Shown: positions 55,396 to 55,514 of the stretch, piece after piece | Position numbering within the stretch: position 1 is the stretch's first letter | Layout: each line of letters begins with the position of its first letter | NCBI RefSeq assembly: GCF_003018255.1 | Contig: NZ_CP027440.1 | DNA length: 64,000 nt | Source: Escherichia coli | GTDB taxonomy: Bacteria > Pseudomonadota > Gammaproteobacteria > Enterobacterales > Enterobacteriaceae | Strand: one strand, 5' to 3' | The notes under the pieces: generated by a model | What the model was told of the DNA's origin: nothing | The model's database searches: none | The model's input: only the letters and a program-made list of their open reading frames with translations | Made by a program: the position numbers and the translations under genes

Positions 55396-55422
55396 ACAAA
55401 AAAAGCCTCCACTGGGAGGCTT
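55396..55422 (-). terminator. pheST attenuator terminator
   Basis: On minus strand: stem GCCTCC-cagu-GGAGGC followed by a U7 tract, between pheM and pheS. Confidence 0.7.
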
Positions 55423-55469
55423 TCAGGCGCTGTTTTCCGTTTCTCTTCTCACGCGCTAGCCTCCTGGAG

Positions 55470-55514
55470 TCAGGTGCTAAAGTAAAAAAAGAAGCGGAAA
55501 ATAGCAGCATTCAT
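55470..55514 (-). CDS. pheM: pheST operon leader peptide, 14 aa ([14 protein letters not shown])
   Basis: Minus-strand sORF with five Phe codons in 14, located upstream of the attenuator hairpin. Confidence 0.85.

Follow-up and report, generated by a model that had tools for sequence, protein, structure and literature searches.

What is the second hairpin that lies between the pheST attenuator and pheS in Escherichia coli? The window examined here (the whole analysed stretch of 64,000 nucleotides, from contig NZ_CP027440.1 of RefSeq assembly GCF_003018255.1) carries the operon on its minus strand. The sequence-only reading of this DNA had described a textbook attenuator, plus an additional hairpin and plus-strand T-run whose role was not obvious and which might have belonged to the antiterminator alternatives. 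Our analysis indicates, with a probability of roughly 87%, that the attenuator is the textbook one and that the additional hairpin is one end of a palindromic repeat whose insertion is polymorphic among strains. The elements of this interpretation are as follows.

55232..55376, minus strand: 145-bp palindromic repeat in the pheS 5' untranslated region (UTR), resembling a MITE (miniature inverted-repeat transposable element); recognised from a polymorphism with exact boundaries, paralogous copies, a profile match and a long-hairpin fold
55357..55376, minus strand: terminal inverted repeat on the attenuator side, which holds GCCUG-UCUCAU-CAGGC; family consensus GAGCCTATCCCAGTAGGCG
55232..55249, minus strand: terminal inverted repeat on the pheS side, GCCUGAUGGGAUGGGCUC; from an inverted-repeat search and the fold
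55229..55231, minus strand: flanking TAA, a copy of the target-site duplication; from the target duplication statistics of the family
55373..55384, plus strand: T-run TTTTTATTTTTC, made of the degenerate element end and A-rich target flank, which gives the look of a plus-strand terminator

The hairpin GCCTG-ATGAGA-CAGGC was found at 55357-55372 (+), followed by TTTTTATTTTT at 55373-55383, and it was picked up by a consensus terminator scan; its existence and position had thus been described correctly, T-run included. Folded alone it is marginally beyond chance (-8.0 kcal/mol, z -2.8; 2 of 200 shuffles folded as well), and the scan returned 3 terminator-like sites per kb where 1.4 were expected. 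What makes the hairpin significant is that it belongs to a repeat family; the 5-bp stem alone does not. Positions 55357-55373 are complementary to 55233-55249, forming a 17-nt inverted repeat (82%). Each end of the family repeat holds a short palindrome with the consensus GCCTA-N6-TAGGC, and the pheS copy carries the co-varied form GCCTG-N6-CAGGC, which is the extra hairpin. Rather than standing free, the hairpin makes up the inner part of the 145-bp element's attenuator-proximal terminal inverted repeat. The T-run is not in the family consensus and other copies do not have it; the plus-strand terminator look is a by-product of a repeat-end palindrome adjoining an A-rich flank.

The boundaries of the element were determined from strain polymorphism. 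The 197-nt spacer between attenuator and pheS was used to search 5,426 complete E. coli genomes, and it matched a median of two places per genome, with the whole spacer found in one place in 4,781 of the 5,426. The remaining matches spanned query positions 21-163 exactly, some genomes matching over the last 33 nt only, and the extra matches were located in qseG-qseE/glrK and nuoL-nuoM. About 12% of the genomes had no intact single match to the pheM-pheS spacer. The one such genome that was checked, E. coli EcPNK004, has an intact Phe leader and a pheM-pheS distance of 138 nt versus 284 nt in the filled allele. Its empty site reads ...GTTTTGAAAAAATTAAGTCCAACG..., where the window reads ...GTTTTGAAAAATAAAAAGCCTG[...]GGGCTCTAAGTCCAACG.... 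Two outgroup species, with identical L20 protein and 88% nucleotide identity in pheS, have spacers of 136-138 nt that align to the empty allele. Because the outgroup spacers line up with the empty allele of EcPNK004, the empty state is ancestral and 55232-55376 is an insertion. The element inserted at a TAA/TTAAG site 19 nt beyond the terminator U-tract, inside the pheS 5' UTR. The same pheM-pheS site is also filled in Escherichia whittamii, and the 511 bases around attenuator and hairpin were 100% identical in ATCC 11775, Nissle 1917 and many other E. coli genomes.

An nhmmer search with the family profile matched 55230-55376 (E 2.8e-43), and the 'pattern' strand of the family corresponds at pheS to the minus strand, i.e. 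sense to pheS. Using a sensitive search, 1-8 copies were found per E. coli genome (median 5). In K-12, five copies of 134-150 bp were located at the loci examined, three on the plus strand and two on the minus strand.

192640-192773, plus strand: K-12 copy in pyrH-frr
1007681-1007828, minus strand: K-12 copy in ycbX-rlmL
1798985-1799132, minus strand: K-12 copy in pheM-pheS
2543640-2543783, plus strand: K-12 copy in cysP-ucpA
2689517-2689666, plus strand: K-12 copy in qseG-glrK

The nuoL-nuoM spacer is also polymorphic: K-12 has REP-like sequence there, and a core-only repeat was found at the same place in YDC107, E. whittamii, Citrobacter and Pantoea. The distribution of the family was surveyed by an exact scan with a 22-base core motif in one genome per species, which returned at least 120 stretches. 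Among the matches listed were most Enterobacterales genera, Aeromonas, Xanthomonas, a Pseudomonas metagenome-assembled genome (MAG), several Comamonadaceae and a Prosthecochloris (Chlorobi) MAG. Copies are also carried by 163 plasmids and by Yersinia phage vB_YenM_42.18.

Full-length copies have the ends GAGCCTATCCCAGTAGGCG...GCCTAATGGGATAGGCTC. Identical 3-nt flanks were found in 17 of the 28 copies with both ends intact (nine TAA/TAA, eight TTA/TTA and none mixed), which has a probability of ~8e-6 if the two flanks are independent. The TWA target-site duplication is genuine at the family level. The family thus shows terminal inverted repeats, target duplication, an empty site, dispersed copies, a length of ~145 bp and no coding capacity, which are the marks of a MITE; where copies vary, they do so in line with base pairing and not with codon positions. 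Between co-directional flanking genes, 26 copies are sense and 30 antisense, a random orientation.

Several copies have features of their own. In Comamonadaceae (Curvibacter, Polaromonas, Rhodoferax) and in one MAG labelled 'Gammaproteobacteria bacterium', the copy has near-identical flanks on both sides; the Curvibacter copy lies just after a gene that resembles, by sequence, an ABC-transporter substrate-binding protein, and in Rhodoferax antarcticus a copy lies between iscA and hscB. Some Salmonella copies, on chromosome fragments as well as plasmids (e.g. NZ_LN868944.1 464479-464688), reach ~210 bp because ~62 bp are inserted inside the element. In copies from Yersinia and uncultured Enterobacterales, the central loop contains extra sequence.

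Both strands of the element were predicted to fold as one long imperfect hairpin, at -66.2 kcal/mol (z -5.2) for the minus strand and -63.4 kcal/mol (z -6.1) for the plus strand. When the whole pheS leader was folded, the element formed an independent long hairpin in which the arm of the extra hairpin was paired with 55233-55249 and not with itself. The sequence-only reading stands for the attenuator, and its separate second hairpin gives way to a repeat end. In read-through pheST mRNA the whole element would form a single long imperfect hairpin, with the arm of the extra hairpin taken up by the opposite end at 55233-55249. RNAalifold, applied to 107 distinct copies from many genera whose cell counts are not phylogenetically independent, gave 33 pairs, 19 of them with compensatory changes; by counting, 94.2% of cells were paired compared to 82.2% in shuffles. 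The covariation score was 0.357 versus 0.140 in shuffled alignments; it was reached by none of 500 shuffles, and slid controls scored at most 0.084. Pair 79-114 illustrates the covariation, with AU 47, CG 43 and GC 10. G.T cells outnumber A.C cells by 230:43 (140:43 when one fixed G.T pair is left out), so the pheS sense strand, which is the reference strand, is the better-paired strand.

The attenuator itself was examined for each of its defining parts.

55396..55520, minus strand: Phe leader (attenuator) RNA; Rfam Phe_leader RF01859, model positions 1-125 of 125
55470..55514 (55514->55470), minus strand: pheM leader peptide with stop; 14 codons, 5 Phe
55429..55505, minus strand: segment 1:2 'protector' hairpin over the Phe codons; inverted repeat with 24-nt arms, present in the minimum free energy (MFE) structures
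55415..55464, minus strand: antiterminator (2:3), in which GGAGGCU (55464-55458) pairs with AGCCUCC (55421-55415)
55398..55424, minus strand: attenuator terminator; 10-bp stem 55424-55401, 4-nt loop, U7 at 55404-55398, from a terminator scan

The match to RF01859 is full-length (74.4 bits, gathering score 55, E 1.4e-11), and the RNA at 55396-55520 (-) has an MFE of -53.7 kcal/mol (z -6.05), folding as the 1:2 hairpin plus the terminator. The pheM open reading frame (ORF) was read from the sequence as ATG AAT GCT GCT ATT TTC CGC TTC TTT TTT TAC TTT AGC ACC TGA. In RefSeq the identical sequence bears the labels 'Phe leader region' and 'pheST operon leader peptide PheM', and Pfam PF28075:PheM is on record for orthologous loci. 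The antiterminator was recovered by folding 55412-55475, i.e. after removal of segment 1 and segment 4. Antiterminator and terminator are mutually exclusive, the terminator at 55424-55398 forming in the folds when segments 1 and 4 are present (-14.9 kcal/mol when folded alone). By ORFs and RefSeq annotation, the attenuator lies downstream of rplT and upstream of pheS-pheT. It shares with the known pheST attenuator (RF01859) the 14-codon Phe-rich leader, the 1:2, 2:3 and 3:4 pairings, the stem/U7 terminator and the rplT-pheS position, with no difference, and the K-12 pheST leader differs from it at one leader position. The region 55396-55520 (-) is the canonical, already known pheM/pheST transcription attenuator, with all tested defining features present, and the leader and terminator had been described correctly in every detail, as judged from the Rfam match, the folds and RefSeq. 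When Phe-tRNA is short, the ribosome stalls at the pheM Phe codons; segment 2 can then base-pair with segment 3 (GGAGGCU:AGCCUCC), and no stem/U7 terminator forms.

RNA ends in K-12 bear on what the inserted hairpin does, and K-12 coordinates were converted by the relation window = K-12 - 1743756. In the Term-seq data of Adams et al. 2021 (PMC7815308), two conditions show a minus-strand 3' end at 1798987 (read scores 58,094 and 30,898), scored as not Rho-dependent and 45 nt upstream of pheS. This position corresponds to window 55231, the first nucleotide beyond the element hairpin, and a 3' end that lies 45 nt upstream of pheS thereby gains a structural explanation. Comparison with Term-seq had been proposed as a check on the extra hairpin; no plus-strand 3' end is among those listed between 1798900 and 1799199, and the minus-strand end falls at the element base instead (PMC7815308). 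The element hairpin is probably a barrier to 3'->5' exonucleases, as REP sequences are, or a weak stop, and would in this way create the K-12 3' end. In read-through transcripts the long hairpin would block 3'->5' decay or stop transcription weakly, giving a stable leader fragment. For pheST, the element appears to be neutral or mildly modulatory. Additional 3' ends are listed inside pheM (1799251 (-), window ~55495) and in the leader (1799194 (-), window ~55438), and none is among those listed at the attenuator U-tract (~1799154) (PMC7815308).

The K-12 copy differs from that of the window at 6 positions inside the element, core positions included, and in the K-12 allele the small plus-strand stem is down to 4 bp. 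These changes in an otherwise invariant core, together with the weakened stem, argue against selection on the pheS copy, and especially against a plus-strand terminator. The core referred to here is the most conserved part of the family.

55275..55328, minus strand: near-invariant core CCAGCGCGGAGAAACCGGAGCGUAC-UUAA-GUACGUGAGGAUUUCGAGCACUGCC; columns at least 90% conserved in the 107 copies

Conservation of these 54 nt includes the half that was not used to find the copies, and it reaches across distant Proteobacteria. The dnaN-recF spacer (138-140 nt) of 11 Enterobacteriaceae species consists essentially of the repeat alone, antisense to the operon; its mean pairwise distance is 0.12, and ~0 in the core with the non-ascertained half included, compared to 0.39 at flanking third codon positions. 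Core-only copies, which have no outer repeat ends, occupy the same intercistronic sites across genera at dnaN-recF, at nuoL-nuoM and upstream of yebC, and by our reading of the sequence a further one may lie upstream of ssrS. The nuoL-nuoM copies of Escherichia, Citrobacter and Pantoea have an identical core with compensating outer stems. The invariance of the core is odd, given that a plain hairpin needs no invariant sequence. Transposase recognition normally lies in the ends of an element. Candidate explanations are gene conversion, a site for a host factor, or a transposition intermediate specific to one strand. We put forward tentatively, as a possibility that we would not favor over its opposite, that the ~54-nt core (CCAGCGCNCAGNAACCGGAGCGUAC-loop-GUACGUGAGGAUUNCGAGCACUGCC) may be more than selfish DNA: a structured, strand-asymmetric element under functional constraint that works as RNA or single-stranded DNA.

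The T-run raises the question of whether the extra hairpin could instead be a working intrinsic terminator on the plus strand, stopping an antisense RNA (sX9-like, or running out of pheS) before the attenuator. The scan called a 5-bp stem with 4 GC pairs, a 6-nt loop and a TTTTTATTTT tail, and the stem folds with the energy and z-score given above (-8.0 kcal/mol, z -2.8). The Xanthomonas small RNA (sRNA) sX9 (RF02228) gave a weak match immediately upstream, at 55294-55359 (+) (24.6 bits, E 0.43), and matches of 37.7 bits (Rhodoferax) and 34.3 bits (Pseudomonas MAG) in related copies. These matches extend outward from the central loop and lie on the strand opposite to the 'pattern' strand, and every one of them is below the gathering score of 44; no match was obtained in the Xanthomonas locus examined, and sX9 is not discussed in the main text of Schmidtke 2012. 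The relation to sX9 is a lead only, not membership. No plus-strand 3' end is among those listed in K-12 between 1798900 and 1799199, and a scan of 54900-55900 found no promoter-like site on either strand. The T-run is foreign to the family consensus and to other copies, the K-12 stem has only 4 bp, and the hairpin is missing in EcPNK004 and in both outgroups, with ~12% of genomes having no intact copy. In a plus-strand transcript of the whole element, moreover, the arm would be taken up by the long hairpin. A plus-strand terminator is consequently very improbable. Still less can be said for the hairpin as an alternative structure of the attenuator, be it a second antiterminator, a pause hairpin or a back-up terminator, which we regard as refuted and almost certainly wrong. 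Its position 19-25 nt downstream of the U-tract is suggestive of such a role, as is the fact that AAAAAGCCU (55369-55377, the 5' flank and end of the element) is perfectly complementary over 9 nt to the 3' arm of the terminator, AGGCUUUUU (55400-55408). A terminator-repeat pairing could form in read-through RNA on this basis, but the complementarity is probably coincidental, since AAAGCCU occurs in both. The hairpin is transcribed after the termination decision, the RF01859 model ends at 55396, the antiterminator lies entirely within 55415-55464, and the hairpin is homologous to repeat ends at unrelated loci. Intact attenuators that have no hairpin were found in EcPNK004 and both outgroup species, so the proposed inclusion among the antiterminator alternatives does not hold. 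Because the hairpin and the element are transcribed after the U-tract, and because attenuators exist that do not have the element, they have no part in the attenuation decision.

A third explanation accepts the insertion and holds that it has been co-opted in cis, as a ~145-nt 5' UTR hairpin that shapes pheST mRNA through a transcription stop, a block to decay with a stable leader RNA, or a host factor bound to the core. The minus-strand 3' end that K-12 shows in two conditions, 1 nt beyond the base of the hairpin, is consistent with this, and the better-paired strand is in sense orientation at pheS (G.U to A.C cells 230:43). Other members of the family at orthologous intergenic sites are constrained (0.12 vs 0.39 at synonymous positions, core ~0), and there is a precedent in the ERIC and REP repeats, which are said to change the stability of flanking mRNA (review PMC3184786). 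The pheS copy, however, is not intact in ~12% of E. coli genomes, with a clean empty site in the one checked, and the nearest outgroups have no element; the K-12 copy is mutated at otherwise invariant core positions; no Term-seq 3' end is listed at the other K-12 copies, including pyrH-frr, which is sense-oriented; and the family as a whole is randomly oriented (26 sense, 30 antisense). We consider co-option rather unlikely on this balance, and the interpretation that we prefer remains a textbook attenuator followed by the end of an inserted, polymorphic repeat.

Some observations do weigh against this preferred interpretation. The left junction is degenerate (AATAAAAAGCC versus the expected TAA|GAGCC) while the right TAA is clean, and the target duplication at the pheS copy is for this reason deduced from the family and not cleanly visible. 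No autonomous transposase partner with the same ends was found in ~1.1 Mb of collected loci; public collections were not searched. Strong constraint was measured on other family members. The Term-seq 3' end at the element base could reflect an effect on pheST mRNA, and among the 3' ends listed none falls at the other K-12 copies, the sense-oriented pyrH-frr copy included (PMC7815308).

The family was compared with repeats already described. It is probably the 'RSA' (BEE95) of K-12 annotation, a correspondence that is based on size, copy number and description only. The K-12 record gives RSA as 150/151 bp in 6 copies, split 2/4 by strand (PMC5172473 Table 1), and the present family resembles it with 134-150 bp, five K-12 copies located and a median of 5 per E. 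coli genome. RSA/BEE95, as far as the title of a cited work describes it, is dispersed, intergenic and enterobacterial, like the present family. The ERIC/IRU repeats (MITEEc1) are likewise ~130-145 bp imperfect palindromes that are enterobacterial, intergenic and co-transcribed, form a long hairpin, have TA-containing flanks and are strain-polymorphic, and the ERIC centre looks alike (GCTTACATAAGTAAG against GCGTACTTAAGTACG). The ends differ, however (GAGCCTATCCC against TATACTC), as does the duplication, which is a 3-bp TWA in the present family and TA in ERIC. Unlike ERIC, the present family has an invariant core and is spread well beyond Enterobacterales. Identity with ERIC/IRU, which had been suspected from the central GTAC..TTAAGTAC motif, was rejected: a true ERIC copy (ybhJ-ybhI) gave no nhmmer match at E<=1, its ends differ, and alignment to it gave scattered identities only.

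Tourist-like, or PIF-Harbinger, elements, which are related to the IS5 family, are MITEs with TWA (TAA/TTA) duplications. The present family shares with them a short non-coding element, terminal inverted repeats, the 3-bp duplication and presence/absence polymorphism, and differs in that its centre, not its ends, is most conserved and that no matching autonomous transposon was identified for it in the collected loci. It is not among the Enterobacteriaceae MITEs from ISfinder given in a 2026 paper (MITEEc1, MITEEc2, MITEKpn1 and MITESen1), and MITEKpn1, for which the sequence was compared, is unlike it. REP/BIME sequences are likewise intergenic hairpin repeats inside operons with RNA 3' ends at the hairpin base, but they are ~35-40 nt long and species-specific, whereas the present element is 145 bp with a conserved core. 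A literature text search for the core sequence returned nothing relevant. Three further candidates were tried and rejected. The sequence CUGAUGAG in the plus-strand hairpin fits the core motif of a hammerhead ribozyme, but neither GAAA nor stem III follows it, the motif is replaced by CTGATAGG or CTAATGGG in other copies, and Rfam gave no match. The conserved GGA/GA internal loop does not fit a K-turn, having a bulge of 1 nt rather than 3, and TGGCAAGTAAAATAGC misses the GG/GC spacing of a sigma-54 promoter by one.

By the ORF list and RefSeq annotation, the minus-strand gene order in the window is thrS-infC-rpmI-rplT-pheM-pheS-pheT-ihfA. Two features at the start of pheS lie outside the repeat.

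54203..55186, minus strand: pheS coding sequence; 327 aa, true start ATG at 55186 and not at 55198 (RefSeq pheS is 984 nt)
55204..55217, minus strand: small conserved hairpin CAGUG-UCAC-CACUG, outside the repeat and present in the MFE structure of the whole leader

The small hairpin is found a short way upstream of GAGG (55193-55196), the pheS Shine-Dalgarno sequence. In two outgroup species it reads CGGUG-UCUU/UCUG-CACCG, a compensatory change from A-U to G-C, and the region where pheS translation starts may have this hairpin as a conserved feature. An Rfam match to the enterobacterial sRNA STnc540 was found at 51397-51555 (-) (67.4 bits, gathering score 38); it covers the 3' end of ihfA and the region beyond, including the ihfA terminator hairpin. 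In E. coli GPEC60-33-648, a chicken isolate, an IS200C copy separates the rplT terminator from the pheM promoter region (506-964 of its stretch). This insertion sits between rplT and pheM, outside the repeat, and leaves attenuator and repeat intact.

These results remove a false lead, in that the hairpin downstream of the attenuator is not an additional regulatory hairpin, and not a terminator of antisense RNA either. Since the pheS 5' UTR is polymorphic (284 or 138 nt), models of the pheST leader based on K-12 include ~145 nt of inserted repeat, which is missing from the Salmonella-like outgroups and from some E. coli. If the core of the family is indeed functionally constrained, the copy in the pheS leader would be a recent mobile member, and the core would bind a conserved factor or serve an undescribed transposition intermediate. 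The family is under-described and mildly intriguing, with its TAA/TTA duplications, its invariant core and its conserved copies inside essential operons, and it may deserve a study of its own.

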